Source of the DNA: Patescibacteria group bacterium
GTDB lineage: Bacteria > Patescibacteriota > Gracilibacteria > BD1-5 > UBA2023
Reading direction: 5' to 3'
Length of the DNA: 22,823 nucleotides
NCBI GenBank assembly: GCA_049301335.1
Contig: JBAQKV010000030.1
Location: 1-22,823 of the forward strand
Position numbers and translations under genes: made by a program. Below, piece by piece: positions 269 to 22,823 of this stretch. Each line of letters starts with the position of its first letter. Within the stretch, counting starts at the first letter, position 1. Under the pieces are notes generated by a model. That model ran no database searches. It was not told where the DNA came from and was given only the letters and a program-made list of their open reading frames with translations.

Positions 269-345
269 TGGTGGACCCAAGGAGACTCGAACTCCTGACC
301 TCTTCCATGCCATGGAAGCGTTCTAGCCAACTGAACTATGGGCCC
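269..345 (-). tRNA. tRNA-Ala (anticodon GGC), CCA encoded
   Basis: The reverse complement is GGGCCCATAGTTCAGTTGGCTAGAACGCTTCCATGGCATGGAAGAGGTCAGGAGTTCGAGTCTCCTTGGGTCCACCA. It folds as a cloverleaf with a 7-bp acceptor stem including the G3:U70 Ala identity pair. The anticodon loop is AT-GGC-AT and the T-loop is TTCGAGT. Confidence 0.93.
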
Positions 346-400: not shown

Positions 401-946
401 TTACGCGTGCGATTCGGCGAATACTCCCCTGCCCTTCTCCACGTTCTCCTCTATGCGTTCCAGCATGATTTCGTTGATCGTGCCGTTCTGGTTGGATATT
501 TCGAGGCAGGCGTCCTCGTCGAGAACGAGGCATTCCGTAGGTTCTATGGCCGTAATGGTCGCCGTGCGTTCGCATCCGGCGATGAGCGCGTATTCTCAAA
601 ACAGGCTGCCTTCGCGAAGCACCGTGAACGCGTCGCCTTCGATCGAGACCTCCACGGCACCGCACATGATGACGTACGCTTCGTCATTGCAGGCATCATG
701 TTCCGCCAATACGGTCTCGCCCTGCGGGAAACGCCGTACCCTGCTACGGGAAAGGATTCCCGACACCGTCGCTTCGTCCACTCCTTCGAAGAGCCCGTAT
801 TTCCGCACGCGTTCGCCAAAGCCCTCGCTTACCCCCGGTTCAACGGGAGCGGCAACGGGTTCCGCGGGCTTGTAGCCCAAGCGGGAGAGCGACGAGAGGT
901 CGATGGGCATATCACGGGATAAATGACGGACCGAAGGATATACCAT
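401..946 (-). CDS. cyclic-nucleotide-binding domain protein (181 aa; one in-frame TGA at 596-598 read as Gly)
   Basis: ORF 596..1084 continues in the same frame past TGA to TAA at 401-403. The joined sequence reads ...AFTVLREGSLF[G]EYALIAGCERTATITAIEP..., matching the cNMP-binding FGE-x-AL and R-[ST]-A-[ST] motifs. ATG at 946 is preceded by GGAGGG with a 7-nt spacer. The longer ORF-track start overlaps tRNA-Ser. Confidence 0.8.
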
Positions 947-991
947 TCGAAATCCCTCCGCAAGCCTACTTTTCATACCGGAGCACCACGT

Positions 992-1018
992 AAAACCCCC
1001 GCTTTCGCGGGGGTTTTT
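992..1018. terminator. intrinsic terminator downstream of tRNA-Ser
   Basis: AAAACCCCCGC-tttc-GCGGGGGTTTTT, a 7-bp GC stem with flanking A and T runs. Confidence 0.7.
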
Positions 1019-1028
1019 GGCTTTCAAA

Positions 1029-1116
1029 TGGCGGAGAGAGGGAGATTCGAACTCCCGGTGGGTTGCCCCACACACGCTTTCCAAGCGTGCGCACTAGGCC
1101 ACTATGCGACCTCTCC
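1029..1116 (-). tRNA. tRNA-Ser (anticodon GGA), long variable arm, CCA encoded
   Basis: The reverse complement is GGAGAGGTCGCATAGTGGCCTAGTGCGCACGCTTGGAAAGCGTGTGTGGGGCAACCCACCGGGAGTTCGAATCTCCCTCTCTCCGCCA. Anticodon stem CACGC/GCGTG, loop TT-GGA-AA. It has a long variable arm, T-arm GGGAG-TTCGAAT-CTCCC and discriminator G. Confidence 0.92.
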
Positions 1117-1180
1117 ATGTCTACTGAAAGCGTGGATGAGTCTATAGAAAATCCCGTTTCGCGCAAATCGAAATTCGCAA

Positions 1181-1209
1181 TTTCCGTTTTCGTCCGCTTT
1201 ACGTATAAT
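1181..1209 (+). promoter_or_regulatory. candidate promoter (perfect TATAAT -10, weak -35)
   Basis: TATAAT at 1204-1209, 33 nt upstream of the ATG at 1243. The only -35 candidate at 17-nt spacing is TTTCCG (1181-1186). Confidence 0.3.
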
Positions 1210-1242
1210 CTCGCTCGAATTTTCGGTTCTCACGCCCACCGT

Positions 1243-1776
1243 ATGCAAGAACAGATCGAACAAATCAGCCTCCGGTTTTTCACCCTCATGGGAATAACCG
1301 TAGAATCCGTTTCGGCCGAAGCGGAAGAAGAAAAGCGCCGCATCTACCGCGTCGCGGTTAAAACGCCCGATTCCAAGCTCCTCATCGGAATGCACGGCCA
1401 AACGCTCGAAACCGTCCGCCACCTGCTCACCCGCCTGGTAGAGCGTACCATCGGGAAATCGTTCCTCATCCACCTCGAGGTCAACGACTACCTCCAGTCG
1501 AAAGACGACCGCCTCTTCCGCCGCATCGACGAGAAGATCGCTTCGCTTAAGACTACCGGCTGAGAAACCACCCTCGGCGAACTCTCCAGCTACGAACGCA
1601 AGAAGGTCCACGCCTACGTGGCCGAAAAGAACGTCGAAGGGCTCTCCACCCGCTCCACCGGCGAAGGCGAATCCCGCGTTCTCCATCTGGCGTATTCCGG
1701 ACCGGTCGAAAAAGCCCACGTCCACGCCAAAGCCTCTTCCCTCGCCGATCTTTCCGAAGACGGGGTCGGAATCTAA
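1243..1776 (+). CDS. Jag/KhpB-like KH + R3H RNA-binding protein (177 aa; in-frame TGA at 1561-1563)
   Basis: ORF 1063..1563 continues in frame past TGA to TAA at 1774-1776. The C-terminal extension ...ETTLGELSSYERKKVHAYVAEKNVEGLSTRSTGEGESRVLHLAY... is an R3H-type motif. The N-terminal half (LLIGMHGQTLETVRHLL) is KH-like. Start chosen at ATG 1243 (MQEQIEQ...) because upstream codons overlap tRNA-Ser. Confidence 0.7.
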
Positions 1777-1800
1777 AACCAAATAATCACGTCATACGTA

Positions 1801-2940
1801 ATGAGAACCGTCGCGCTTCTTCTGCTCGTGGCCGCATCGGGCTGGTTTTTCCAGTACGCGTCGCAAAAAACGAGACCCGTCCACCTCAATATCGAATACC
1901 GCCTCATCCAGCATCCCGAATTCATCCCCAAAGTCGAGGACGTCCGTCTCATCGCTTCGGGTTTCGATAACGTGATAGCGGATTTTTATTGGCTCTCCGC
2001 CATCCAATACGTCGGAGAAAACGCCGTTTCGTCGGAATACAAGCGTTTCCTTTACGAAATGCTGTCGCTCGTGACCGACCTCAACCCCGCGTTCACCACC
2101 CCGTACGAAGTAGGCCTCCTCCTTCTTCCCGATATCAACCCGAGCGCCGAGAAATTCAACAAGACCGAAGCCGACATGAACGTTCAGAAGGCGGTATGGC
2201 TTTGAGAAAAAGGAATGAGGACCACTTGCGACGCGAAAAAAGTCGAAAAGATCCTCGCCGAACCCGTTCTCTCGAAAGTTTGGACGGATCCGCAATACGA
2301 AAGCCCCTGCAGCAATTCGATGGTTCCGTACTACCTCGCGTACGTCGAATACTACAACCGCAAGAACGCCGACAAGGCGAGCGACTACTACCGCATCGCC
2401 GCGGCCAGTAAGGACGCCCCCACCGGAGCGCGCATGATGAGCGCGATTATGAAGGGCAAATCCGGAGGACGTGAGAAATCCATCCTCATGTTCCTTTCCA
2501 TCGCCGAATCCCTCCAGCCGGGACAAGCGAGCGCAGAGGCCTGCCGAACCGTCTCCCGCGAAATGCGCGACTATCTCGTCAAGCCGTTCTCTTCCGAATT
2601 CCAGGGCGAAATCCCCACCGAATTCGTCAAACTCGCGGAAGCGTACCGGGTAGAGGCGACAAAAGGACTGAAAGAAGACGCGGCCAAAGCGGAATCGATG
2701 GACGCGCTCTGTTCGACCTACCTCGGCAAAGCGATGCGCGAACTCAATCTCGAATATATCGCGAGAAAGGACGCGACGTTCGTGAAGAATACCGGAAAAC
2801 AGGTCATAGACGCCAAAGAGCTCCACGATTTGGGCGGATTGGACTACCTTCCGAAAGACTACCAAAAACTCGACGACGGACTCGAAATCATCTACGTCAA
2901 AGACGACGGAAAATGGGATTACGTCGGAGGAACGTACTAA
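1801..2940 (+). CDS. membrane-anchored protein of unknown function, possibly TPR-like helical (379 aa; in-frame TGA at 2203-2205)
   Basis: ORFs 1801..2205 and 2215..2940 share one frame and are separated only by TGA plus three sense codons (...KAVWL[G]EKGMRTT...). There is an N-terminal hydrophobic anchor (MRTVALLLLVAASGWFF). Stop is TAA. I recognise no specific family. Confidence 0.65.
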
Positions 2941-2942
2941 AG

Positions 2943-2973
2943 AAAAAACCGGCCCGTCAGGGCCGGTTTTTTT
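2943..2973. terminator. bidirectional intrinsic terminator between convergent genes
   Basis: AAAAAACCGGCCC-gtca-GGGCCGGTTTTTTT, a 7-bp GC stem with A and T runs on both sides. Confidence 0.8.
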
Positions 2974-3007
2974 ATCGGCGTCACGACGGACGAGTCCGTG
3001 TCCGCGA

Positions 3008-3871
3008 TTAGTTGTCGGCGTTGAAGAGGCTGTACCGGAGCGCGTCGAAGTGGCGGCTGCGGTTCTCTTTGAATTCGAGGTTGGAGATGGCGTTTCCGGC
3101 CTTCCCTACCGCCGCGACGGACATTACGGGCTTCGAGAAGCCGTTGGACGAATCCACGCGGTATTCGATAGGCGTAGCGCCCGGATTGGTAACCGCGAGA
3201 TACGCGTCTTCGTAGTCTTCGAGAAAGTCGGCGAGATTCACGGAAACGTCGGTGGTATCGTCGTTAGCGTCGACCGAACGCATGTTTCCGGCGATCACGG
3301 TAGCGGCCGAACCGTTTCCGACGATGGCAGCGAGCCCGCCCGTCCCTACGATTCCGTACGTCTTCCCCGAAGCGTCGGATCCCATTACGTTCCAAGAGAA
3401 CGGCGCGTCGGAAGAAACGGTGAAATCGAAGGTCCGCTCGACGTTCGAAGTGCCCGCGCGCGGGTCTTTGAAAGCCGCGGAATCCACGGTGGAAAGGATT
3501 TTTCCCTTATCGAAGAAGAGCGGGACGATTTCCATCTGCCCCGGTTGGAGAACGCCCGAATAGCTTTTGGAAAACGCGGAGAGCGAATACCCCATTTCGG
3601 CGGCGCGGCGGTCGGCGGAAACGAAAACTTTTCCGTCCGCGGACGAACGTTTCATGACGTCTTCGAACCCCTCGCGGTGGTTCTTCACCTTGAGCAACGC
3701 GTATTCCATTCCGCCTTCGGCTCAGGCGTACGCGGCGAAACCGTCGAAAAGCGAACGGCTGATGCGGGATTCCGCGACGAAAAGGAAAAGCACCCCCGCG
3801 GAAAGCACGACCAAAAAGGCCGTGAGGAGGATGGCGATGACGCTCGAGAATCCGCGTTGGTTGGTTCGCAT
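3008..3871 (-). CDS. PilX-like minor pilin / pilus-associated protein (287 aa; in-frame TGA at 3722-3724)
   Basis: ORFs 3722..3937 and 3008..3709 share a frame and join as ...FDGFAAYA[G]AEGGMEYALL.... The N-terminus MRTNQRGFSSVIAILLTAFLVVLSAG resembles the PilX N-terminal anchor (no Glu at +5). ATG 3871 lies 1 nt after the upstream TAG. Stop is TAA. Confidence 0.6.
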
Positions 3872-3872
3872 G

Positions 3873-4526
3873 CTAGTAGGACTTATAGATTTTCTCGCTG
3901 ATCGTCGTCTGCGCGCGGATCTTGAGTCCGGCCGCAACCTTCGGATCGACGCCCTTCCCTTCCGGAATAGCGAGGATGAACGACGCGGTGACTTTGGCTT
4001 CGCGGAGCGCTTCGGTACCCACGGTACCCGAAGTAACGGAATCGCCCGACGCCCCCACGATATGGAAGCGGAGCCCTTCGACCTTGACGCGGGAGTCGGT
4101 AAGCCGTTCGCGAGAAGAAGTACCGTCGGCGGCGACCGATTCGCGGCCGAGGTAGCACGCGCCGGAACCGGTGGAGTCGCAAGCTACCGGCCCGGAAACC
4201 GAATCTTCCATCAGGTAGTAGCGGGCGGCGTTGCCCAATGCGTCGGGACGGATGGCCAATACGGAATTCCCATTGCGGTAATCGAGGGTACGGATGGCGG
4301 AACCTCCGTCGTAGAACGAGAGGTCGACGCCCTTTTCGCGGATTTCCTTGGCGAACATTTCCGTCATCGAACGTCCGTTTTCTTGGAGGGAGCGGGCGAA
4401 TTCGAGGCGGCGGTTCAGAGAGAGCACTCCCAAATAGATTTCGAACACCGAAACCATCACCACCGCCAGAATGGTGACGGCGACGATCATTTCCACGAGG
4501 GTGAAGGCGTTCTGTCGGACTCTCAT
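3873..4526 (-). CDS. prepilin-type pseudopilin (PilW/GspJ-like, 217 aa)
   Basis: N-terminal MRVRQNA|FTLVEMIVAVTILAVV is a class III signal peptide / N-methylation motif with Glu at +5. Stop-start junctions on both sides suggest translational coupling. Confidence 0.8.
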   Translation of the reverse strand: MRVRQNAFTLVEMIVAVTILAVVMVSVFEIYLGVLSLNRRLEFARSLQENGRSMTEMFAKEIREKGVDLSFYDGGSAIRTLDYRNGNSVLAIRPDALGNAARYYLMEDSVSGPVACDSTGSGACYLGRESVAADGTSSRERLTDSRVKVEGLRFHIVGASGDSVTSGTVGTEALREAKVTASFILAIPEGKGVDPKVAAGLKIRAQTTISEKIYKSY

Positions 4527-4527
4527 A

Positions 4528-5190
4528 TTACCTTTTCCAATCGGTTATGACGGTATTCATCGAAAGCTCGCGGTACCCCGAAGCGACCGAGACGAAGTGC
4601 GCGGAAACGGCGAGCGCCCCGCTGACGGAAGCGGATCCCCCGCCCCCGGCCTGGTCGGCCGAAAGGTTGGAAACCGTAACGTACGCGTAGTACGGGGTTT
4701 TTGCGTTCGAACCGGAACAATCGTGTACGTAGCGCCCCTGGAGATCGAGACAGAGTCTGAACTTCGTACCGGATACGGCATTGGTTTCGGCGACGATGTC
4801 GGCCTTAGTGGGAGCGGCGGCGACGCGGTGGACGCGGACCGGCGAAGACGTGCTCGAAAAATCGTTCTCGATCACGTAGGTTCCCGGAGTGAGGCGGCAA
4901 TTGTCGGGAGACGGACAGAAAGACGGGTCTTCGGTGGTGACGGTGACTCCCGAGCGGAGCGAATCCCACGAACGGAGCCCCATCCAGTTGGAATCGCGAA
5001 CGTTCTTTACGAGTTCGAGGCGTTCGCGCAGGAGGTTACCCCCCACGATTTCGTCGCGCGAGCGCTCCGAAAGGAAGGTCGCGGTACGCAGGAGCGAATA
5101 CGCGGCCACGAGCCCGAGCGCGAACACGACGATAGCCACCATGAGTTCGATCATGGTGAACGCGCTGTTGGAACGGAAACGGTATCGCAT
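4528..5190 (-). CDS. prepilin-type pseudopilin (PilV/GspI-like, 220 aa)
   Basis: N-terminal MRYRFRSNSA|FTMIELMVAIVVFALG is a prepilin cleavage/methylation motif. Stop is TAA at 4528-4530. Confidence 0.8.
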   Translation of the reverse strand: MRYRFRSNSAFTMIELMVAIVVFALGLVAAYSLLRTATFLSERSRDEIVGGNLLRERLELVKNVRDSNWMGLRSWDSLRSGVTVTTEDPSFCPSPDNCRLTPGTYVIENDFSSTSSPVRVHRVAAAPTKADIVAETNAVSGTKFRLCLDLQGRYVHDCSGSNAKTPYYAYVTVSNLSADQAGGGGSASVSGALAVSAHFVSVASGYRELSMNTVITDWKR

Positions 5191-5191
5191 G

Positions 5192-5716
5192 CTAGTAAAC
5201 GGAAGCGTTACGGAACGGCTTGGAAAGACTGCCGGTGGAAGATCCCTTGAATCCTACGGTTCCTCCCGAAAAAACCAAGGCGTTCCCGTCGGCGTCGACC
5301 GAAGAAGGCGCGCCCGTAGGGGCGGAAAACTTCACCGTCACGAGGTCGGACGGCAGATCGCTGATGAGGACGTCCTTTTCGAGCGGAACTAGGCGGAGGA
5401 GCCGGTATTCCGAAGGCGCGGCGAATCCGCTGCCGGCTTTCGCCGCATAGAGCGAAAGCGACCCCGAGCCTTTCTGAAGGACTACGTAGGCGTCGCCGTT
5501 GAAATCGGTACCGGGGACGGACAAGCCCATGGCCGAAGTCAGTTTGGCTTCGGAAAAGGTCTGTTCGATCTTTTCCGAAGAAATGCGGACTTTGGCGATA
5601 TCGGAATAGTACGAATACGGCGCGTACGTCAAAACCGCGAGCAGCGAAACGATGGCGAGGACGACCATGAGTTCCACGAGCGAAAATCCGGAGGTTTTGG
5701 AAAAACGGGAATTCAT
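5192..5716 (-). CDS. prepilin-type pseudopilin (FimT/GspH-like, 174 aa)
   Basis: N-terminal MNSRFSKTSG|FSLVELMVVLAIVSLL is a canonical G|F-x-x-x-E prepilin motif. Stop is TAG at 5192-5194. Confidence 0.8.
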   Translation of the reverse strand: MNSRFSKTSGFSLVELMVVLAIVSLLAVLTYAPYSYYSDIAKVRISSEKIEQTFSEAKLTSAMGLSVPGTDFNGDAYVVLQKGSGSLSLYAAKAGSGFAAPSEYRLLRLVPLEKDVLISDLPSDLVTVKFSAPTGAPSSVDADGNALVFSGGTVGFKGSSTGSLSKPFRNASVY

Positions 5717-5726
5717 GGGAAACGGG

Positions 5727-6824
5727 TTATCCGACCACTTCGGTCACGCGCATGACGGCCGAGAAAATGGCGAGCGCGAACCAGAGGACGAATCCGCCGG
5801 CGAAAAGGATGGCGGCCGGTTCGACGAAGCGCACGAGGGTGGCGATGGATGCGTCGACTTCGCGGGAATATTGTTCAGCGAGGCGCGCGGTGACTTTGTT
5901 TACGGTGGAGGTGCGTTCTCCAGCCGCGATGATCTGTACGAAGTCGCGGGTGAAGACCTTGAAGGTCGGATCGACTTCCATGAAACTTTCGGCGAGCTTC
6001 TTGCCCATTTCGACCTTCGAGGCGACGTCGGCGATCATTTCTTCGTAGACGAGATTGCCGGTGGCTTCCCCGGTGAGGCGGAGGGTTTTGATGATGGGAA
6101 TTCCGGCTCAGATGAGGAGCGAAAGCATCGAGGAAACGCGGACGATGAGGTAGTTGCGGTAGAGCGATCCGATGAGCGGAGCGCGGAGGGCGTAACGGTC
6201 GAAGGCGAGGCGCCCCGAATAGGTCGAAAACCAAGCACGAAGCCCGAATGCCGCAAGTATGAAGAACGCGATGATGAGCGTGAAATTGTCTCGGACGAAA
6301 TTCGAGGTGTCCATAAGCGACGCCGTCACGGCCGGAAGTTCGGTTCCGGAAGTTTGGAAGAGCGGTACGAGCTTGGGCACGACGTAGGTCATGACGACGA
6401 GGACCGCCACCATGAGGAACGTCATGATGACGAGCGGGTACGTGAGCGCCCCGGTGAGCTTCATGCGGATTTCGTCGCGGGAGCGGAGGTCGGCGGCGAT
6501 GCTCGCGAACGACTTCTGCAAGGTACCGGACTGTTCGCCGGATTCTACGATGGAAATCTCCGCGCGTCCGAAGGTGCGCGGGAGTTTTTTCATGGCGGTG
6601 GATACCGGATCGCCGGATTCGACCAAAAGGACGAGTTCGGAGACTTCGGCGTAGAAGCGGGGATTCCCCACCTTTTCCAAGAACGAATGGAGCGCCTGGA
6701 TGACGGTTACGCCGCCTTCGACGAGATTGGAGAGGTGTTCGAAGAAGAGCGCCTTTTCCTTCGTTCCGACGCGGTGCCAGAAGCGTACCGGCGGAAGTCC
6801 GGTTTCCTGGGTGTTGCTTTCCAT
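5727..6824 (-). CDS. pilC: type IV pilus / T2SS platform protein PilC (GspF family, 365 aa; in-frame TGA at 6108-6110)
   Basis: ORFs 6108..6824 and 5727..6038 share a frame. The join reads ...VRVSSMLSLLI[G]AGIPIIKTLRLTGEATGNLVYEEMIADV..., which restores the second GspF repeat (compare the first repeat, LSNLVEGGVTVIQAL). It has three TM segments. Stop is TAA. Confidence 0.9.
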
Positions 6825-6825
6825 T

Positions 6826-7395
6826 TTAACGGGGGGAATAGTGGGAGAAACCGAGGCTTACGGAAACCTGAAAAGTTCCGTTCCTAGGCGACGTCGAGTC
6901 GAACGGGAAATTCGCGGACTTGATGACGTAGCGCTTCTTGCCGGTTTCGCCGGTGAGGTATTCGAAATACTGCATGAGCGCGGCCTGGTTGCCCGCGCGG
7001 AGCGTGAGGTCGACGGTTCCCTGCGAGAGGCCGTTCGGCATGCGCGAACCCTTGTCGATGCCGATGGAGAGCGGAAGGACTCCGCTCGAACCGGTAAAGA
7101 GGCTGTCGAGAATGGCGTCTTCGCGGAACGGCGCGGCGTAGCGGGCGATGTCGGCGGCGAAGGCCGGGGTCGCGGACTGTTCCTTGAACGCGTTGAGCTT
7201 GGCCAATTCGGCGGATTTTTCGGATTTTTCCTTTACGGCCTGGGCGTATTCGTCTTTCTTGCCGGTAAGCGCGTAGTAATCCGGATACGCTGAAAACGCG
7301 GCGAGGAGGATGGCTGCGGCGAGAAGGACGGCCGGAAGGAATTCGGAAGTCTGGGACTTCTTCTTGATGACTTCGGTGGGCTGGGGGCTTCGCAT
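6826..7395 (-). CDS. PilO-like bitopic pilus assembly protein (189 aa)
   Basis: Single N-terminal TM (FLPAVLLAAAILLAAF), a coiled-coil stretch, then a globular C-terminal domain. It sits between the PilN-like gene and pilC. The assignment rests on architecture and position, not on recognised motifs. Confidence 0.5.
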   Translation of the reverse strand: MRSPQPTEVIKKKSQTSEFLPAVLLAAAILLAAFSAYPDYYALTGKKDEYAQAVKEKSEKSAELAKLNAFKEQSATPAFAADIARYAAPFREDAILDSLFTGSSGVLPLSIGIDKGSRMPNGLSQGTVDLTLRAGNQAALMQYFEYLTGETGKKRYVIKSANFPFDSTSPRNGTFQVSVSLGFSHYSPR

Positions 7396-7419
7396 ACGGA
7401 AGAACGGTTATTCGGGAGG

Positions 7420-7986
7420 CTACTTGATCTTGAAATCCGCGTTGAACGTGCGGTGCGTATCGTCGCCGGAGACGAGCTTGAGTTCGCCGAGGGTGAACGG
7501 CGAGGTCGCGGCGGAGCCGCTTCCGGAACGGAAATCCCCTACGAGGCGGATGACCTTGTCGACCGGATCGACGCCGACCGAAGTTTGGCGGGCGGTAATG
7601 ATGGTCGCGACTTTTCCCGCGGTGAACTGGAAACCGTCGAAGTCGACGTCGTAGTCGCGGTGGAGACGCATGAACTCGGCGACGTATTTCTGCGCCATGG
7701 AGCGTTCGACGTCCTTTTGGAGCGAAGCCTTGTTGCGGCCGAGGAGGTCGGCGGCGGCGACTGCCGGGTCGGCCTTGAGGGCGTTGATCTGGGTTTCGAA
7801 TTCGGAGAGTTCGTGGCGAACTCCCGAAATCTGCTCGGAAACCGTCCACGTCTGGTACTTCAAATACCCGGCGAATCCCACGGAGACCGCGAGGATGAGC
7901 ACCGAAGCCGTCATGAAAGAGCGCTTGGCCGGAGCCGGGGCTTTCTCTTGGATTTCCGGGGTTTCCGGCGAAATCTGTTCGTTCAT
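7420..7986 (-). CDS. PilN-like bitopic pilus assembly protein (188 aa)
   Basis: Short cytoplasmic N-terminus, one TM (FMTASVLILAVSVGFAGYL), a coiled-coil region and a C-terminal domain. It is the first gene of the pilus operon. The canonical PilM-binding INLLP motif is not seen. Confidence 0.45.
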   Translation of the reverse strand: MNEQISPETPEIQEKAPAPAKRSFMTASVLILAVSVGFAGYLKYQTWTVSEQISGVRHELSEFETQINALKADPAVAAADLLGRNKASLQKDVERSMAQKYVAEFMRLHRDYDVDFDGFQFTAGKVATIITARQTSVGVDPVDKVIRLVGDFRSGSGSAATSPFTLGELKLVSGDDTHRTFNADFKIK

Positions 7987-8050
7987 AGGGAAAAAGATGA
8001 AACTTCCGTATTAGGCTACCACGTTTCCGGCCCGAACGCAAAATCCCGGA

Positions 8051-8079
8051 TTGACGATTGGGTGGGGAGTCCGTATATT
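8051..8079 (+). promoter_or_regulatory. strong sigma70-type promoter for tsaE (TTGACG, 17 nt, TATATT)
   Basis: TTGACG at 8051-8056 and TATATT at 8074-8079 with an exact 17-nt spacer. The tsaE ATG begins 7 nt after the -10 hexamer. Confidence 0.6.
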
Positions 8080-8085
8080 CGAAAC

Positions 8086-13964: not shown

Positions 13965-16900
13965 CTATTTCCTTACGATTTCGAACGATCCGCCCGCGTC
14001 GATCCAATGCCGGAGTTTGGAGAGAACGGCTTCGAGATCCTTCTTGGCGAGCGAACTACGGACGAACGGGACGGCGTTTTCGTATACGCGGGCGAGTTCC
14101 CCCGGACGGAACTCGTTCTTGCCGAAACTCTGCGAAATCCTCACGGCGACGCGGAAGATTCCGGGACGCTTGATGACGAACGATTCGCCGCCCACCGGGA
14201 AAAATCGGACGTATTGAACGTCGGAAACGTCGATTCCGGCCAACTCTTCGGCGACCGGACCGGTAAACGGATTGACGTCGGCGGCACCGTCTTGGGAAAC
14301 TTCGGAACCCGGGAACGGAAGGCGTCCGTCCGAGAAATTTTTCCAAGAGAATTCCTCAGACCATCCGCGCTTGACCGAACGTCCGTAGAGCTGTGAGAGG
14401 CCGATCATGAGCCCGCCGGTCACCATGAGGGCAAGCACTCGGACGCTGAGGTCGTCGACCCCGGCCCAAAGGTCGTAGAAGAGGATCTTCACGAGCATGT
14501 AGCTGCCTACGTAGAGACCGGCGGTACGGTATTTGGCCACGTCGGCGGAAACGCCCGCGAAAATGAGCGCCGAAGCGACGAGCGCGAGGTAGATGGTGAC
14601 GGCGAAGACGTTCTCGGAGAATACGCGGACGTACGCCGAAGTGACGAAGAGCGCCATGACGAGCGCGAAGGCCAGCGCGATGCGGCCTTCTTCGCGCTTC
14701 TTCGAGAAGTTCCAAGCGGAAAGCGCGACCACGGCGAGCGCGACGAGGTTCGCGGCCGCGGAGGTTTTATCAGCCTCGACCGCGCCGTATTGGACGAGCG
14801 TGAAGATTCCGGTAGCGAGAACGTAAGCGATACCCAGGAGTCCTTTTTCTTTTCCGTACGCGACGGAAGCCGCGAGGAAGAGGAACGATACCGCGAGGGT
14901 TTCGTAATCGGAAGCCACGACGCTAGTGAGCGCGAACGCCACGGCGACGGCACCGATACAATGCAAAACGTCGTAGGCGACCGCCCATCCGGTATCGCGC
15001 TTCTTCACGAAGAAAGCTCCGGCGAAGAGCGAGGCGGCGATGAGGGCGACGGTAACGAGCGCGGAGTAATTGCCGAAAGAAAGCGAGTCGAGAAACGGCA
15101 GGATCTTTACGAGACCGATGCCGAGAAGAACCGAGGATCCGGCGAGAAGGTGCGTATCCTTGGCTTTGGAATACAAAAACGCCAATACCGCGGATTCGAG
15201 GATCCATACGAACGAAACGACGCCCGGGGAATCGGCGAACACGACGGCGACGGCGAGCGAAAAGAGCGAAACCGGAACGGCCAATACTCCGTAAATTCCG
15301 TTTTTCGCGGAATCCGGAAGAGTGGAGAATTGGGAGAACGGCGCGTTCGCGATGAGGCGGGCGAGGGCAATGGAATAAACGGTGGAGAACGCGGCGACGC
15401 CGAGGTAGACGAACCCGAGCGTGACCATCGAACCTTCGTTCCCCGAGAACCAAAGGTCCTTTCCCAGATAGGCGATTTCTCCAGCGGCGAAGAGCGCTAC
15501 GACCGCCTTCTGTACGGCGAGCGCGAGCGAAGGCGTTCCGCGGGTGAGCGGAACCGATACGAACGGCACGGCGAGCGCAGCGGCGACGAAAAGCCCGAAC
15601 ATCGCCCATGAGAACCCCCACTGCGGCACGAGCACGAACGCGAGGAGTATCGCGCTCATGACGTTCGACATGAGCACGAGGAATTCGAGGCGTTTCCAAA
15701 CCGCGATGCCGGAAGAAAAGACGAAGAACGAAATTCCGGCGAGGGCGATCGCGAGGCGCTGCCCGTCAGGCATGGCGACCGGAGAGAGGTTCGAGAAGAT
15801 TCCGGAAAAGATCATGAATCCGCCGATGAGCGCGAAGAACGCGTAGCGGAACCAGGCGGAAAGCCGGTCGAGCACGAACGCCGAAGCCACTCCGTAGAGG
15901 AGGAAAATCGGCACGATGACGGCGGCGAACTGGTGCACGCCGAAAACCGCGAGCATCGCCGCGCCGAGCAGGAGCGGGATGAAGAGGGTCCAAGAGAGCA
16001 ACGCGCCTCCGGCGAACGCGGCGACCGAGAACGCCGAAAGGGCGAAGAGCGGCACGATGCCGAGGAAAATCGGAGCGACGGAGGTCGTTTTGGAAAGCAG
16101 GAGGAACAACGAAGCGTATCCGGCAGCGACGATGACGGCGGTTTTCGCGCCTCGGAAATTGCGGATGTCGACGACGGCGCCGATGACCGAAAGCAGGACG
16201 GAAATTCCCACGAAGACCGCGGTTTCCGTGGTCGAACGTACCGCGAAGGCGTTGATCATCCCCACGAGGAACGAACCGCCCACGACGACGTTCACCAGCC
16301 AGGAAGCGTCGGCATTGGATTCTTCGCCGCGTTTCGAGAGGATGCCAGCCAAGAGGTATCCGGCGGCGGTAAGGATGGCGTTATATCCGAGAAGCCCGTA
16401 CGGACCACGCGGTTCGGCACCCACCAAGAACGGGATGGCGTACCCGAAAGCGAACGAGAAGAGCAGGAAGGTGCGCGACGAATAGACCAGGGCCGTAGCG
16501 ACCGCGAAGGCCGTATTGAGCACGAGGAATCCCATCGTCACCGTGTCGGAAAGGTAGCCTTCTCCCCCGCCGACCATGAAGCGGCCGGAAAGGATGGTCA
16601 GGGCGTTGATGGCGATGCCTACGCCCAAAAGCGTCCGGGATTCCACGACGTGGCCACGGGAGTCCATCCATACGCCGATACCGTAGAGCGAAAACCCGAA
16701 CGCGAGGCCGATGAGGATTTTCCCCACCGGGCCGACTTCCTGCCAAACGAGGGAAAGGAAGAATACCGCGCCCAAAAACAGGAGCGTTCCACCGATTTTC
16801 GCGAGTGGACGGTCGGAGAAGAATTCCACGAACCAGTTCGGTTTTTCCGGTTCCGCGGGCACGACCGGACGCGGGGCACGAACCGGCGGTTGGACGGTTT

Positions 16901-17246
16901 CGAAGTATTCGGACTCCCGTTCGGCGGCAACGGAAAGGGATTCGAGCGTCGTCTCGTATTCGACGTCCGAAGCGGCAAGCGGTTCCGAAATGCGTTCGGT
17001 TTCTTTGCGAGCGGGTTCGCGTTCCGTTTTTTTAGCCGACCGGACTCCTTCGCCGAGGGCGGATTCGATGAAGTCCTTCGAAAGGAACGAAGCCCGGGCG
17101 ACCGCGGCGGAAATGAGGAAAATTATCCATCAGTATTCGAGGAACGATTCGGAAGGACGGGAAGTGAACCCGCAGAAGAAATACGCCACGAGGAAGCCGA
17201 CGATGACGCTGAGCATGATGGCGAACCGGTTGAGTACGTTGAACAT
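13965..17246 (-). CDS. very large polytopic membrane protein, DUF2339-like (1093 aa; in-frame TGA at 17130-17132)
   Basis: The 965-aa ORF 13965..16862 has a GTG track start. It extends upstream in frame through one TGA to ATG 17246 (MFNVLNRFAIMLSVIVGFLVAYFF...EY[G]WIIFLISAAV...). That region adds two N-terminal TMs and an acidic linker. More than 20 hydrophobic segments follow, organised as in DUF2339 proteins, and then a ~150-aa soluble C-terminal domain. Stop is TAG. Confidence 0.7.
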
Positions 17247-17273
17247 GGTGGGGAATTGAAGGATGCTTGCCGA

Positions 17274-18971
17274 TTATTTCGAAGACGGGGCTTTGCCCGA
17301 CATCGACCGGAGCAGAAGTCCGATGCCGGTAACGAACGCGAGCGCCACGATGGCGGCCAGCACGGAGAATACCGTGCGGTTCGATTCGAGGGGCCGGTCG
17401 TCTTTCGGGTCGCAGGCGTTGCCGATCTTGTCGCCGTCCACGTCTTTCTGCTCGGGGTCGTAGGCCGTGGGGCAATCGTCTTGGGAATCGTAGACTCCGT
17501 CGTAGTCGGTATCGGAACAGACGTCGCCCACTTTGTCGTTGTTCGAGTCTTTCTGATCGGCGTTGCTTACGGTGGGACAATTGTCGCGCCAGCCTTCGAT
17601 ACCGTCGCGGTCGGCGTCTTCGCACATGTCACCTTTGCCGTTGGAGTCGGAATCCTTCTGGTCGGAATTCACGAGCGCCGGACAGTTGTCGCACGAGTCG
17701 CCGATTCCGTCGGAATCGGAATCCTTCTGGTCGGCGTTGGCGATTTTCGGGCAGTTGTCGGCCGAATCGAGTTTTCCGTCCTTGTCGGTATCGTGGGTGG
17801 AGCGGTATTCGGCGTCGCGGTCGCAGACGTCTCACTTGCCGTTCTTATCGAGGTCGAGCTGGTCGTTGTTGGGAAGGTCGCAATTGTCGATGACGTCGCC
17901 GATGTTATCGCCGTCGCGGTCTGCCTGATCCGGGTTGGCCGCATGGATGGCGTTGTCGGTACCGTCGGGAACGCCATCTTTGTCGGAATCGAATTCGCAC
18001 GCGTCCCCCACCCCGTTGCGATTGAGGTCGGCCTGGTCGGCATTGGGAATTCCGGGACAGTTGTCGGCGTCTCAGAAAAAACCGTCGTGGTCTTCGTCGC
18101 TGCAGGCGTCGCCCCTTTCGTCGAAATTCCGGTCGGATTGGGTGGCGTTCGCGAGGTTCGGACAATTGTCGAGGGAGTCGGAAACCCCGTCCCCGTCGGA
18201 ATCCTGCCCGAAATGCGGGTTCGGTACGAATACCGGTTCTACCGGCTTATCCGAAGGCTTGAGTTTGTCGACGTCGGCGAATTTCGCGTCGCGTTCGGCA
18301 CGGAAAGCGAAAATCCCGGAGTCGTCGCAACGGTATCCGCGGTACGCCGAAACGGGCGAAGTCGAAGAAACTTTCACGAACACGGTATCCTTGGTCGCTT
18401 TTACGAACCGGAAAGATCGGATGGTCGTAATGGAATTCTGCTCCGGCGCTTTGGGGAACGTGAGTTTCACGGCCTTGGCGTCGAAACGGGAGACGGCGCG
18501 TTCGTCGGTCTCTAAAAACGTTTTTCCATCAGGGGAAACTTCTACCGAATACTGTCCTCCCACGATGTCCGAAAGGAGTCGGAAAGTTCCCCTCGGTTGG
18601 ACGGTATCGAATACGAACTCGAGCGACGCGGAACCTTCGGCCCTCACCGACGGCGGAACTTCGACGTAAGTGTCGCGGCTGGCGTCGGAAAGGTTCGAGA
18701 AAACCGCGCCGTTCCAATCCGGCGGATTGGCGAGTTTCGCGGGGATGTCCGCGTTGCGTACGACGTCTTTCGTAACGGAAGGCAGCGCTTCGCCGTTCTG
18801 CACGAAAAACAAATCGTCCCGCCAGTCGGTGGCGACCGTGACGTTCCCGGGCTGTTTGGGAGCGAATTCGGACGTCTCGACGAAACAGGACGATGGAAAG
18901 TCCGCGGCGAATGCCGGAACGGGCGCGAGCGCGACGAGCGCGCACGCGAGGAATTTCGGTTTAAAATCCAT
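17274..18971 (-). CDS. secreted, C-terminally anchored surface protein with thrombospondin type-3 Ca-binding repeats (565 aa; in-frame TGAs at 17832-17834 and 18072-18074)
   Basis: ORFs 18072..19040 and 17274..17672 plus the unlisted stretch between them form one frame, interrupted only by two TGAs. There is a signal peptide (MDFKPKFLACALVALAPVPAFA|AD). The ~240-aa beta-rich N-terminal domain is possibly discoidin-like (YSVEVSPDGKTF). About 9 repeats of D-x-D-x-D-G-x-G-D-x-C-D-N-C-P-x-x-x-N-x-D-Q follow, then a C-terminal TM (VFSVLAAIVALAFVTGIGLLL) with a basic tail. Stop is TAA. Confidence 0.85.
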
Positions 18972-18993
18972 GAGGAATCGGTTTATTTGGCGG

Positions 18994-19022
18994 ATAGTAT
19001 TCCAGAATGCGGCATTTCGCAA
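18994..19022 (-). promoter_or_regulatory. candidate promoter of the TSP3/DUF2339 operon (TTGCGA, 17 nt, TACTAT)
   Basis: On the minus strand, TTGCGA (19022-19017) and TACTAT (18999-18994) with a 17-nt spacer, about 22 nt upstream of ATG 18971. Confidence 0.4.
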
Positions 19023-19033
19023 TAAATCAGGAT

Positions 19034-19060
19034 TTGACAATCCTATTTTATTATTAGAAT
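19034..19060 (+). promoter_or_regulatory. promoter of small paralog P2 (TTGACAATC ... TAGAATC)
   Basis: TTGACA at 19034-19039 and TAGAAT at 19055-19060 with a 15-nt spacer, inside the perfect palindrome AGGATT-TGAC-AATCCT. The nonamer and spacing match the P1 promoter. Confidence 0.55.
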
Positions 19061-19107
19061 CCGAAACGGCAATCCTGCCGAGACACTAAGAAGAAAGGGT
19101 ACGCTTC

Positions 19108-19467
19108 ATGAAAAAGAACTCCGGCCGCCGCAAGAGCGTTCTGTTCACCTGCCGTGAAAATCCGGCTCCCGGCCAGAACTATGCCAGCCCCCACGTCCTG
19201 CTGCCGCGCTATGACGTTTCCAAGGTGAAGCTGGGCGTGCTGAACAACATCGGCAAGACCCCGCGCCTGCGCATTCCGCGGCACATGGAATACATCAAGG
19301 ACCTCAGCGAGGCCAACACCCGCATCCTCATCCAAGGGAGCGGCCACGGCCCGTCCTACGTGATCGCGCTCGACTGGGAAGTCATGTTCATGCTCGAACG
19401 CGCCGGTGCCGTTCGTCTGAAGGATTCCTACCGCCACGAGCTCATGGGCTCGCCCAAGGCATCCTGA
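19108..19467 (+). CDS. small basic protein, paralog P2 (119 aa to the TGA), possibly SpoVT/AbrB-like fold, function unknown
   Basis: ATG preceded by GAAAGGG. It is paralogous to P1 and B (see 11899 and 13345). The only stop-like codon is TGA (19465-19467), followed by a terminator. Leucine codons look richer in CTG than in neighbouring genes. Confidence 0.6.
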   Translation: MKKNSGRRKSVLFTCRENPAPGQNYASPHVLLPRYDVSKVKLGVLNNIGKTPRLRIPRHMEYIKDLSEANTRILIQGSGHGPSYVIALDWEVMFMLERAGAVRLKDSYRHELMGSPKAS

Positions 19468-19496
19468 CCGTCGCGTAAGCGATCGGTCTCGGGCCG

Positions 19497-19531
19497 AAAA
19501 GAAAACCCCCTCGCACGAGGGGGTTTTGATT
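19497..19531. terminator. bidirectional intrinsic terminator between P2 and ftsK
   Basis: AAAAGAAAACCCCCTC-gcac-GAGGGGGTTTT, a 7-bp GC stem. Confidence 0.75.
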
Positions 19532-19556
19532 TGCGTCCAAACGGGCGCGTTTTTCG

Positions 19557-21818
19557 TTATCCTATAACTTCCCTCGGCTTGCTTCCGTCGGCGGGTCCGA
19601 CGATACCGAGGCGTTCGAGAATGTCCATGACGCGCGCGGCGCGGCTGTAGCCGAGTCGCATATGGCGCTGGAGCATCGACGTGGAAGCCTTGCCCTGCGA
19701 ACGGACGAACGCGATGGCTTCTTCGAGGACCTTTGGGTCTTCGTCCATGCCTCCGTCGTTGCGTTCGAGACCGCCCTCGTTGTTCCCGCGGTCGCCTTCG
19801 ACGATCGACGGGTCGTAGAGGTCTTCGAGCATTTCCGGGTCGATGGTGAGCTTGATGCGATTGACCACGGATTCCACTTCTTCGGTACTGACGAACACGC
19901 CCTGTACGCGCTCCGGAGCCATCGAGCCGACCGGCGAGAAGAGCATGTCGCCCATGCCGAGGAGGTCTTCGGCGCCCTGGCGGTCGAGAACCGTGCGGGA
20001 GTCGACGAGCGACGCCACCGTGAACGCGATGCGGGACGGGATGTTCGCCTTGATGAGACCGGTGATGACGTCTACGGAAGGACGTTGCGTCGCGACCACC
20101 AAGTGCATTCCTGCGGCCCGGCCCATCTGCGCTATGCGGCAGATGGCGGCTTCGATTTCCTTCTTATTGCCCGACATCATGAAGTCGGCGAGTTCGTCGA
20201 TGATGACGACGATGACCGGTTCCCGCTTCTTCTTGTCGACCTTTTCGTTGAATTCGGCGATGTTGCGGACGCGCGCCGATTTGAAATTGTCGTAGCGGCG
20301 GATCATTTCGGCTACGGCCCATTTGAGCGCGTTCAATGCCTTGTCGGATTCGCTGATGACCGGGGTCAGAAGGTGCGGAATGCCGTCGTACACGCCGAGT
20401 TCGACGCGCTTGGGGTCGACCATGATCATGCGGAGGTCGGACGGCGAGTTCTTGTAGAGGAGCGAGAGGATGATGCCGTTCATACCGACGGACTTACCGG
20501 AACCGGTCTGCCCCGCGATGAGGAGGTGCGGCATCTTGGTGAGGTCCCCCACCACGAAGTCGCCGTTGATATCCTTCCCAAGGGCGTACGCGAGTTTGGA
20601 TTTATGGCTCTTGAAATTGCCGTGTTCGAGGACTTCGCGGATTCCCACCATGTCGCGTTTCTCGTTGGGAACTTCGATACCCACGAGCCCGACTCCCGGA
20701 ATCGGCGCCTGGATGCGGATCGACTTGGCCTTGAGGGCGAGGGTGAGGTCCTTCTTGAGGTTTTCGATCTTCGAAAGGCGCACGCCGTCGTTGGGATCAA
20801 GACGGTACTGTACGACCGTCGGTCCGGCCTTGTGGCCCGCCATTTCGACGCTGATGCCGAACTGGAGGAGCGTCTGCTTGATCATGAGCGACTTCTCTTT
20901 GATTTCGGATTCCGAAACGGTGTTCTTGTGCTCTACGTGGCTGAGGATGGAAGTCGGCGGAAATTCCCAAGTTCCGAAATCCGGGGAAGATTTCTTGGGA
21001 GCGTCATGCTTGGCGAGTTCGGCGATGCCGGTCTTGGGAACGGACTTCGCGTCTTCGGTTCCTTCGCCTTCCTCTTTTCCGAAGAAGTTCGCGAGGATGC
21101 TCTTGGGCTCCTTCTTGATGATGGGAATGTGCTTCGGAGCGTTGGCAATCGAAAGCTGCGACGGTTCGGGCTTTTCGACGGCCTTCTTTTCACGGTCGCG
21201 CTCCGCGCGGATCGCTTCGAGCTCCTTTTCGATCTTCTTGCGCTCGACGTCGTATTCGGCCTTGAGTTTCTTATCGACCTTCGGATCCTTCGAAGGCTTG
21301 TCGTCGGAACGGAATTCCTTCGCGACGGCCTTGACCGACTCTACGGACGGGAGTTTCGAATGGATGTGCGAAATGACCTTGCGGTACGAAATGCGGAGCG
21401 TGAGGTAGAGCGAGACGAGAAAGATGACTACGAGGAAAATCACCGCGGGCGAACGGCCGAAGAGGTCCTTGAAAACGTCGAAGAAATCGAGGTACCCGTT
21501 CCAAGCCGATGGGTTCCACATTTCCGAAAGCGAGGTAACGGAAATCCAGAACAGAAGGAGCCCGAAAAACCTCGCGAAATTCCACGAAAGGCGGTTTACG
21601 GCGATCATGGCGCCGATGGCAGCGACGATGGGTACGAAAAATTCGCGGTAACGCACGCCGAGCAGTTGTGAAAGGGCGCCTTCGAGAGCTCCGCCCACGA
21701 GCGAAGTCTTGTCGCCGAACATGACGAGCGCTGCCAAAAACAGCAAAAAACCTCCGAAGAAAAGGCTGCGGAGTTCTTGCCCGATTACGGGTCATTTCTG
21801 TTTTTTCTTTCTCGCCAT
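19557..21818 (-). CDS. ftsK: DNA translocase FtsK (753 aa; in-frame TGA at 21792-21794)
   Basis: The C-terminal motor carries Walker A (GQTGSGKS), Walker B (VVIIDELADFMM) and a gamma winged-helix domain (SMLQRHMRLGYSRAARVMDILERLGIVGP). There are N-terminal TM segments. The ORF-track start is an internal TTG. The frame extends through one TGA to ATG 21818 (MARKKKQK[G]PVIGQELRSLFFGGFLLFLAAL...). Stop is TAA. Confidence 0.95.
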
Positions 21819-22619: not shown

Positions 22620-22823
22620 ATGCCACCAAGTTCCGGCAAATCCCGTTTCGGGAGCGCCGAGAAAGCGCTCCTCGTCATAATCCTTCTCGTTACGGGAATT
22701 TTTCCGTATTTCCCGATTACCGCCCACGGGGTGGTAAACTGGTACGTAACGGGTTTCGACGATCTGCTCATTTTCGCAGCCACGTTCCTCGCGGCTAAGA
22801 AAATCGGGCGTTCAAGCTACGCT
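22620..22823 (+). CDS. partial membrane protein (first 68 codons, continues past the window), possibly CadD-like transporter
   Basis: ATG 22620 is preceded by AAGGAG with a 7-nt spacer. The frame is open to the window end. Hydrophobic segments and NWYVTGFDDLLIFAATFL resemble the N-terminal T-x-x-D-D motif of the CadD family. It is absent from the ORF track because it has no stop within the window. Confidence 0.5.
   Translation, partial: MPPSSGKSRFGSAEKALLVIILLVTGIFPYFPITAHGVVNWYVTGFDDLLIFAATFLAAKKIGRSSYA

Follow-up and report, generated by a model that had tools for sequence, protein, structure and literature searches.

Does UGA still end genes in the bacterium that carried this DNA and, if it has become a sense codon, does it mean the same thing everywhere in a gene? 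The question is raised by a 22,823 bp stretch of contig JBAQKV010000030.1 (hereafter the window, by which we mean the whole stretch analysed; GC content 58.3%), in which in-frame TGA codons occur within gene after gene. A gene map rebuilt with TAA and TAG as the sole stops has 23 complete genes and one partial gene at the right edge (Table 1). Code-25 gene calls were ranked by a codon-usage log-odds score because spurious open reading frames (ORFs) outsize real genes in 58% GC DNA. Translation table 25 is almost certainly in use, with internal UGA encoding glycine and UAA and UAG acting as stops. The contig needs table 25 translation, and standard-code annotation of it is wrong. A second, smaller set of TGAs lies at the ends of genes, and this is the part of the locus that deserves specialist follow-up.

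A sequence-only reading of the window had listed 13 in-frame TGAs in 11 genes. All 13 coordinates hold TGA (or TCA where the gene lies on the minus strand), in frame, in genes that are bounded by TAA or TAG only. The inventory was correct as far as it went; it was not complete, because a fourteenth sense TGA occurs at 13261 in gene B, which brings the total to 14 in 12 genes. The motifs quoted in that reading (HGDLxAGKT, SLFxEYALI and DKNGKxDVCD) are all present. TGA-containing genes have no TAA or TAG interruptions and no frameshifts. In seven of them a Pfam domain spans the TGA, scored as X (cNMP_binding, R3H, T2SSF, TsaE, PrsW, HrcA and TSP_3), and the FtsK and DUF2339 domains are recognised downstream of their respective TGAs. 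The expectation that standard-code gene calls would be fragmented is borne out by a 6.3 kb contig of the Logan collection (run SRR28062791). This contig comes from a separate assembly pipeline and matches window positions 5573-11862 at 100% identity, five TGAs included; the standard-code calls made on it break HrcA into 151+74 and T2SSF into 238+103.

Related loci provide the comparative evidence. A MurA scan with one genome per species, based on a gene without TGA, gave 53 loci, of which 51 are from Gracilibacteria/Patescibacteria metagenome-assembled genomes (MAGs) with MurA identities of 52-95%; the remaining two are standard-code outgroups (Clostridiales and Victivallaceae). Related loci compared with the window are labelled here with L-numbers. 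L002, found on a contig of 783 kb, is the closest of them, with 91-93% DNA identity to the window and 95% amino acid identity in MurA. On the basis of MurA matches and syntenic loci, the host is placed in the Gracilibacteria/BD1-5 group of the Candidate Phyla Radiation. This agrees with the Gracilibacteria-type home anticipated from the codon pattern, and the nearest genomes are Candidatus Gracilibacteria MAGs.

Window genes were aligned to TAA/TAG-delimited ORFs of the related loci and codons were read off the alignment columns. At window TGA sites, 56 of 79 non-TGA orthologue codons encode glycine; among orthologues above ~45% identity the codon is GGN or TGA almost everywhere, and the 91-93% identical MAG has TGA at nine of the 13 listed sites and GGN at the other four. 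The cNMP-binding protein, in which PF00027 covers residues 59-141, has GGN at this position in 17 loci and TGA in seven. In tsaE the counts are three TGA and three GGN, and PrsW orthologues of 48% identity or more have either GGN or TGA at both sites. Orthologue codons are TGA, GGT, GGA and GGG at site 2203 of the hypothetical protein, GGA, GGA, GCT and GGT in the minor-pilin-like gene, and TGA, GGC, GGT and AAG in the Jag/KhpB-like gene, for which the Pfam column is uninformative. In the protein with thrombospondin type 3 (TSP3) repeats, the position marked x in NGK-x-D is G in sibling repeats. Close orthologues of the GspF/PilC platform protein have GGG, GGT, GGT, GGG and TGA, and distant ones have GAT. 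In the one full-length structure, that of Myxococcus xanthus PilC, the site aligns to Ser; it is a variable position of small or polar residues, compatible with glycine without being diagnostic. Nineteen hrcA orthologues comprise 13 with GGN, three with TGA and one each with TGG, GCC and CAA. The TGG occurs in the 96% identical hrcA of L003, opposite window TGA 11375, a site that is GGN in most relatives; it may reflect either a genuine glycine-to-tryptophan change, with TGG a single step away from TGA, or an error of sequencing.

Two TGAs near N-termini, at which the sequence-only reading expected standard-code calls of ftsK and the DUF2339 gene to be truncated, lie inside conserved coding sequence. 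The DUF2339 site is GGG in L002, in 96% identical surroundings, and the FtsK N-terminus MARKKKQK-x-PVIGQE is kept in L004, L005, L006 and L009. FtsK codon 9 itself is TGA in L005, AAT in L004 and ACC in L009, at a variable position. The ftsK of L005 aligns in two frames (residues 1-344 and 346-753), which points to either a frameshift or a misassembly in this MAG. The TGA of gene B is an ordinary sense codon because orthologues have sense codons at this site (GGN in L060, otherwise CGG, CCN or AGN) and continue with EE-stop in all cases; gene B also carries an internal TGA corresponding to glycine in L003 and L004.

The same assignment is obtained from the TGAs of the relatives, 362 of 559 of which (65%) stand opposite window glycine and 0% opposite tryptophan. 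In the same data, GGA, GGC, GGG and GGT stand opposite glycine in 73-82% of cases and TGG opposite tryptophan in 82%. A Codetta-like test, which uses a BLOSUM62-based likelihood over 20 amino acids, favours glycine over the runner-up by 103 nats for window TGAs and by 604 nats for the relatives' TGAs. Ordinary control codons are decoded correctly by this test in 61/61 and 58/59 cases; the only mis-decoded control, TCA, reflects one murA column counted 38 times. When the TGA residue was set to G, W or X in Pfam scoring, G scored above W or tied with it in each of seven domains, as the proposed profile check of TGA columns had anticipated. Scores in bits are 56.6 (G), 50.7 (W) and 52.5 (X) for cNMP_binding; 154.0 (G), 150.6 (W) and 147.6 (X) for TSP_3; and, for G and W, 99.6 and 93.6 (TsaE), 83.2 and 77.9 (PrsW), 152.2 and 149.6 (T2SSF) and 50.9 and 50.0 (HrcA), with a tie for R3H. 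Summed over the seven domains, G exceeds W by ~24 bits. The Walker A TGA of TsaE, which had been singled out as diagnostic, stands opposite the Walker A glycine in all four solved TsaE structures in the PDB, and G is favoured there by 6 bits over W. In the two standard-code outgroup loci, murA has no in-frame TGA and uses TGA as its stop, and ~150 Gracilibacteria orthologue ends use TAA or TAG. Reassignment of CGG/CGA to tryptophan, which has been reported for some relatives, is ruled out here, with both codons aligning to arginine.

Two other interpretations of the internal TGAs have to be weighed against glycine. Under translation table 4, which is used by Mycoplasmatales and several insect endosymbionts (Hodgkinia, Zinderia, Nasuia and Stammera are among its users, with some Eggerthellaceae), the same codon has also passed from stop to sense, and encodes tryptophan. 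High GC content is common to the window and to 58% GC Hodgkinia, and the L003 hrcA codon opposite a window TGA is indeed TGG. That the window uses table 4 is nevertheless vanishingly improbable: no relative's TGA lies opposite a window tryptophan whereas TGG finds tryptophan routinely, tryptophan is not among the common residues in the 79 non-TGA codons at window sites, its log-likelihood lies 159 and 1117 nats below that of glycine, and W lowers or ties the Pfam score in all seven domains. Gene content (type IV pilus, FtsK, TSP3) and relatives also indicate Gracilibacteria rather than endosymbionts, that is, another phylum and another lifestyle. It is likewise very improbable that the TGAs are real stops of the standard code, whether they mark pseudogenes or assembly errors or are passed by selenocysteine insertion or programmed read-through, even though a standard-code caller yields plausible-looking fragments. 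Clean TGAs occur in 12 unrelated genes with homology on both sides, the same sites are TGA or GGN across many independently assembled genomes, and the Logan contig reproduces the sequence exactly through a separate pipeline. Essential genes are affected (tsaE in its Walker A motif, ftsK and hrcA). Cysteine, as a proxy for selenocysteine, scores 168 and 1095 nats worse than glycine, and the genes concerned are unrelated housekeeping and surface proteins, none of which belongs to a known selenoprotein family. TGA would, moreover, be expected as the commonest stop at 58% GC; instead, 21 of the 23 complete genes end on TAA or TAG. Because orthologue codons, the likelihood test, Pfam, structures and outgroups concur, tryptophan, selenocysteine, pseudogenes and assembly error are excluded for practical purposes.

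The decoding machinery would then follow what is established for the group: a dedicated tRNA-Gly with anticodon UCA would read UGA within genes, and release factor 2 (RF2) would have been lost. Table 25 is the Candidate Division SR1/Gracilibacteria code (Campbell et al. 2013 and Rinke et al. 2013, as cited in PMC8629427). In Gracilibacteria and Absconditabacteria, UGA is glycine, tRNA-Gly(UCA) is present and RF2 is absent, with G1:C72, C2:G71, G3:C70 and U73 as the glycine identity elements of tRNA(UCA) (PMC8629427). The RF2 gene, prfB, is missing from every BD1-5 genome available at the time of that survey (PMC6851277), and UGA as glycine has been validated by proteomics (PMC4032931). Table 25 has also been assigned to GTDB class JAEDAM01, which contains BD1-5 and Absconditabacterales (gTranslate preprint, 10.64898/2026.05.24.727570). 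The window resembles these systems in its in-frame UGA at glycine columns of conserved genes, its use of UAA and UAG as normal stops, its nearest relatives among Gracilibacteria MAGs and the fragmentation of standard-code calls. The recoding itself is already known, and close relatives have been deposited. Several of these, including L002, L009, L010, L026 and other TPA 'binchicken' loci, are titled 'uncultured Candidatus Peribacteria bacterium', yet show TGA in frame at positions of glycine. A label such as 'Candidatus Peribacteria' on a deposited relative gives no hint of genetic code, and the underlying naming problem is described in the gTranslate preprint (10.64898/2026.05.24.727570).

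What differs from described table 25 genomes is base composition and, with it, the rarity of the recoded codon. Published code-25 lineages have GC contents of 0.21-0.53 (PMC8629427). The present clade lies above that range, at 58% in the window, 59% in L009 and 63% in L066. Over the first 20 genes to be mapped, TGA makes up 15 of 497 putative glycine codons (3%), with the stop-like TGA 12232 counted among the 15. This rarity is compositional, because the 3% share resembles the 2.5% share of AGA among arginine codons. TGA use drops with GC content, from 40-54 aligned TGAs in 20-32% GC loci to 1-4 in 58% GC loci, and low-GC relatives have many more TGAs within the same genes. The recoding adds only one mildly new point, which is that code 25 persists at 58-63% GC with TGA as a rare glycine codon.

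Several points weigh against table 25 in its plain form. Three of the TGA sites fall in variable columns and are singly non-diagnostic of glycine: FtsK codon 9, the GspF site (when distant homologues are considered) and the first of the two in the TSP3 protein. A GC content of 58% is outside the reported range for the code, and the low-GC codon-capture rationale is not obviously applicable. Scans for tRNA genes found no tRNA(UCA) in the window or in 58 related loci (~1 Mb, a few per cent of any genome), and a motif scan for a GGQ release-factor ORF found none in the ~1 Mb of Gracilibacteria loci, again a few per cent of any genome, its sole match being release factor 1 of an outgroup. Lastly, genes A and D end on TGA without an in-frame TAA or TAG before the terminator, where pure table 25 predicts otherwise. 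The sequence-only reading had held that every confidently assigned gene ends on TAA or TAG, which holds for 21 of the 23 complete genes and fails for A and D, neither of which had been called at the time; that reading gave no annotation for the plus-strand stretch 11899-13884. As a working reading of these ends, UGA would still be decoded as glycine there, and the ribosome would continue as far as the transcript goes, up to its terminated 3' end, where a rescue system would release it. Such a course requires no new factor; it leaves the conservation of these TGAs unaccounted for.

That conservation is clearest in gene A, which has 18 database homologues among 5.8 billion proteins, all 104-120 amino acids long and with a common end point. 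Its end codon in 13 distinct genomes is TGA in eight, TAA in three, TAG in two and a sense codon in none. Substitutions by codon position number 23/19/37, with the third position highest, and conservation breaks off exactly at TGA 12232, after which the next in-frame TAA or TAG comes only at 13270. The 3' layout consists of 15-24 nt, a GC-rich hairpin, a T7 run, a promoter and the ATG of gene B. The terminator hairpin is kept in L002, L005, L056 and L064 with compensatory stem changes. At the junction of A and B there are 1-2 nt indels between genomes, and the two genes lie in different frames in L003 and L005; because these indels shift the frame from genome to genome, the stretch after the gene A TGA is non-coding. 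A confident AlphaFold model of gene A (pLDDT 79) has no significant fold match in the PDB, and a search of JGI metagenome contigs that used the alignment of gene A gave no matches. Genes A, B, C and D have no matches in Pfam or PHROGs.

Gene D, which was found through its codon-usage score, behaves similarly. It ends on TGA in six loci (the window, L055, L056, L060, L061 and L064), the frame downstream is not kept, and its substitutions by codon position number 12/4/26. In L002 a new TAG lies three codons upstream and the former TGA is now TGG. The 19 nt that follow the gene D TGA (19468-19486, CCGTCGCGNAAGCGATCGG) are near-invariant in the same six loci and fall outside the conserved reading frame of the gene; a small element, either structured or regulatory, may reside in them. 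Gene C is a more distant paralogue (hhalign probability 92.6%, E = 4.5e-7), and its end is TGA with the same terminator in L002, L003, L055, L056, L060, L061, L062 and L064. A, C and D together make up a small-protein family that is restricted to the clade. Membrane protein E, which is unrelated to them, has a TGA end that abuts a terminator in L004, L009 and L058. A 'CadD-like' label for this protein was dropped because Pfam gives no match. A terminal-TGA candidate in L006 was rejected as unrelated to family A, and most terminator-adjacent TGA candidates in low-GC relatives were set aside because they look like off-frame translations.

Terminal and internal TGAs differ in how they change. Terminal TGAs sit at the conserved protein end, with an intrinsic terminator 0-45 nt downstream, and they evolve like stop codons: they swap with TAA and TAG, never with GGN, and persist across saturating divergence. 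Among 35 coding ends before strong terminators in the high-GC clade, 16 are TAA, four are TAG and 15 are TGA; one of the 15 is an internal PrsW TGA, so that 14 remain. Internal TGA is absent from the four TGA-ended families, which have ~298 GGN codons, and occurs 155 times against 4063 GGN codons in the other 19 families, a contrast with a Fisher p of ~0.003 that is naive in that it ignores phylogeny and still counts two terminal TGAs as internal. Internal TGAs are followed by G in 49% of cases and by T in 8%, compared with 36% and 19% for GGN codons, and are preceded by T in 20% across the clade, compared with 5% for GGN codons; shared ancestry is ignored in both comparisons. Only two independent families are involved, the effective number being small because A, C and D are paralogues, and the terminal TGAs are for this reason treated as an unexplained observation and not as a result.

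How might the terminal TGAs be explained? We tentatively entertain, as a possibility that is open to considerable doubt, a position-dependent UGA that is bifunctional: it would encode glycine inside genes and, at the ends of A, C, D and the membrane protein, would be kept by selection as an end-of-gene codon, perhaps as a genuine termination signal before intrinsic terminators, which would make the code ambiguous and dependent on context, unlike a clean table 25. Such a dual meaning would account both for the conservation of terminal TGAs and for the lack of internal TGA in the families that carry them. Family A ends on TGA, TAA or TAG and never on a sense codon, although between L005 and the window the adjoining non-coding DNA can no longer be aligned; gene C, with TAA in the window, carries TGA in eight related loci; the gene D TGA has been replaced by a new TAG in L002; and the membrane protein TGA directly abuts its terminator in three loci. 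Internal TGAs, in contrast, swap with GGN in most comparisons, and the 14 terminator-followed ends, the absence of internal TGA from TGA-ended families and the scarcity of T and excess of G after internal TGAs all point the same way. Against a dual meaning, the sample is small and phylogenetically correlated, and the pattern is equally explained by a stop that is preferred yet dispensable beside a terminator. A UGA-reading release activity would also be required; none is known in the group, from which prfB is reported absent in BD1-5 (PMC6851277), and proteomics of another BD1-5 organism gave no peptides specific to UGA as a stop (PMC4032931). The base after terminal TGAs is A or C. In Escherichia coli, A or C after UGA is a weak RF2 context.

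Terminal TGAs could also be relics, or slightly deleterious TAA-to-TGA changes that arise under GC pressure and are tolerated beside a terminator. This is unlikely, although several features fit it. Read-through would add at most ~15 residues before the transcript ends, each case is the last gene ahead of a strong terminator, a GC-rich clade favours A-to-G changes, and TAA and TGA differ between very close genomes (the window and L002 in gene C, L064 and L056 in gene A). The absence of any backup in-frame TAA or TAG before the terminators is also in keeping with tolerated loss. Against this stands the retention of TGA at the same end among paralogues sharing just 21-35% identity, and its retention where flanking non-coding DNA is saturated; a neutral codon should decay to sense, and no such case is seen. 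The lack of internal TGA in TGA-ended families is likewise left without a reason by tolerated relics.

A position-dependent UGA can be compared with several known systems. Genomes described under table 25 differ from this clade in that several genes here have TGA at their end, and our literature search found no report of a similar ambiguous UGA for code 25. A bacterial comparison is 'Candidatus Providencia siddallii' PSAC, an early-stage code-4 symbiont for which an ambiguous UGA (stop and tryptophan) has been proposed (PMC10540940). There, too, UGA within one genome would serve as a sense codon and, in some genes, still as a stop. Its transition is recent and towards tryptophan, with a prfB pseudogene that has an in-frame UGA (PMC10540940), whereas the transition here is ancient and towards glycine. 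Other parallels are eukaryotic or organellar. The ciliates Condylostoma and Parduczia have context-dependent stop/sense codons, and human mitochondrial mRNAs include cases of stop-less or non-canonical termination. In these systems, as in the proposed one, the meaning of a codon or the end of translation depends on position near the mRNA 3' end; they differ in that poly(A)-linked mechanisms or dedicated rescue factors are used. We know of no bacterial example in which such position-dependent termination is established. If it were true here, this would be the first position-dependent reassigned stop in bacteria, or a case of genes that routinely finish without a decodable stop. Whether UGA still marks gene ends or rescue finishes these genes, the outcome would be informative about how the reassignment of a stop codon is brought to completion and about termination without RF2.

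Table 1. Features of the window with their TGA codons and supporting annotation.
Feature	Position	Strand	TGA codons and remarks
tRNA-Ala(GGC)	269-345	-	ARAGORN, Rfam
cNMP-binding protein	401..910	-	TGA 596-598, codon 105, SLF-x-EYALI
tRNA-Ser(GGA)	1029-1116	-	ARAGORN, Rfam
Jag/KhpB-like KH+R3H protein	1117..1776	+	TGA 1561-1563; Pfam R3H, KH_KhpA-B
Hypothetical protein	1801..2940	+	TGA 2203-2205; TAA end, then terminator
Minor-pilin-like protein	3008..3871	-	TGA 3722-3724
GspF/PilC platform protein	5727..6824	-	TGA 6108-6110; Pfam T2SSF (two)
tsaE	8086..8493	+	TGA 8176-8178 within Walker A, GDL-x-AGKT; Pfam TsaE
PrsW-family protease	8557..9501	-	TGAs 9301-9303 (codon 67) and 9049-9051 (codon 151); Pfam PrsW-protease
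70-aa two-helix membrane protein, between prsW and murA	9503-9715	-	Absent from earlier gene list
hrcA	11069..11767	-	TGA 11375-11377; Pfam HrcA
Gene A, uncharacterised family	11899..12234	+	111 codons; stop-like TGA 12232-12234
Intrinsic terminator hairpin with T-run	12250-12271	+	Overlaps gene B promoter; element 12250..12302
Sigma-70-like promoter of gene B	12274-12302	+	TTGATA-17-TAGAAT
Gene B, hypothetical protein	12346-13272	+	TGA 13261-13263, two codons ahead of TAA
Gene C, distant paralogue of A and D	13345..13884	+	TAA end in window; terminator 13901-13926
DUF2339-family membrane protein	13965..17246	-	TGA 17130-17132, codon 39; Pfam DUF2339
Secreted/anchored TSP3-repeat protein	17274..18971	-	TGAs 18072-18074 and 17832-17834; Pfam TSP_3
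Gene D, gene A paralogue (35% identical)	19108..19467	+	119 codons; stop-like TGA 19465-19467
Terminator common to gene D and convergent ftsK	19503-19526		36-39 nt past gene D TGA
ftsK	19557..21818	-	TGA 21792-21794, codon 9; Pfam FtsK alpha, SpoIIIE, gamma
Membrane protein E, 5' part	22620-22823	+	GFDD motif; runs past right window edge; also absent from earlier gene list

Rfam recovers the two tRNAs in the window and nothing else. A type IV pilus-like cluster (3008-7986, minus strand) is syntenic in all close relatives and contains the minor-pilin-like gene, the gene of the PilC/GspF platform protein and two genes for hypothetical proteins with a membrane anchor, together with three prepilin-type genes with N-terminal methylation motifs. 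Between 13965 and 18971, the DUF2339 polytopic membrane protein (1093 amino acids) adjoins the TSP3 protein, and both are kept across the clade. The TSP3 protein (565 amino acids) has a signal peptide and a C-terminal membrane anchor, and its calcium-binding thrombospondin type 3 repeats number 6-7.

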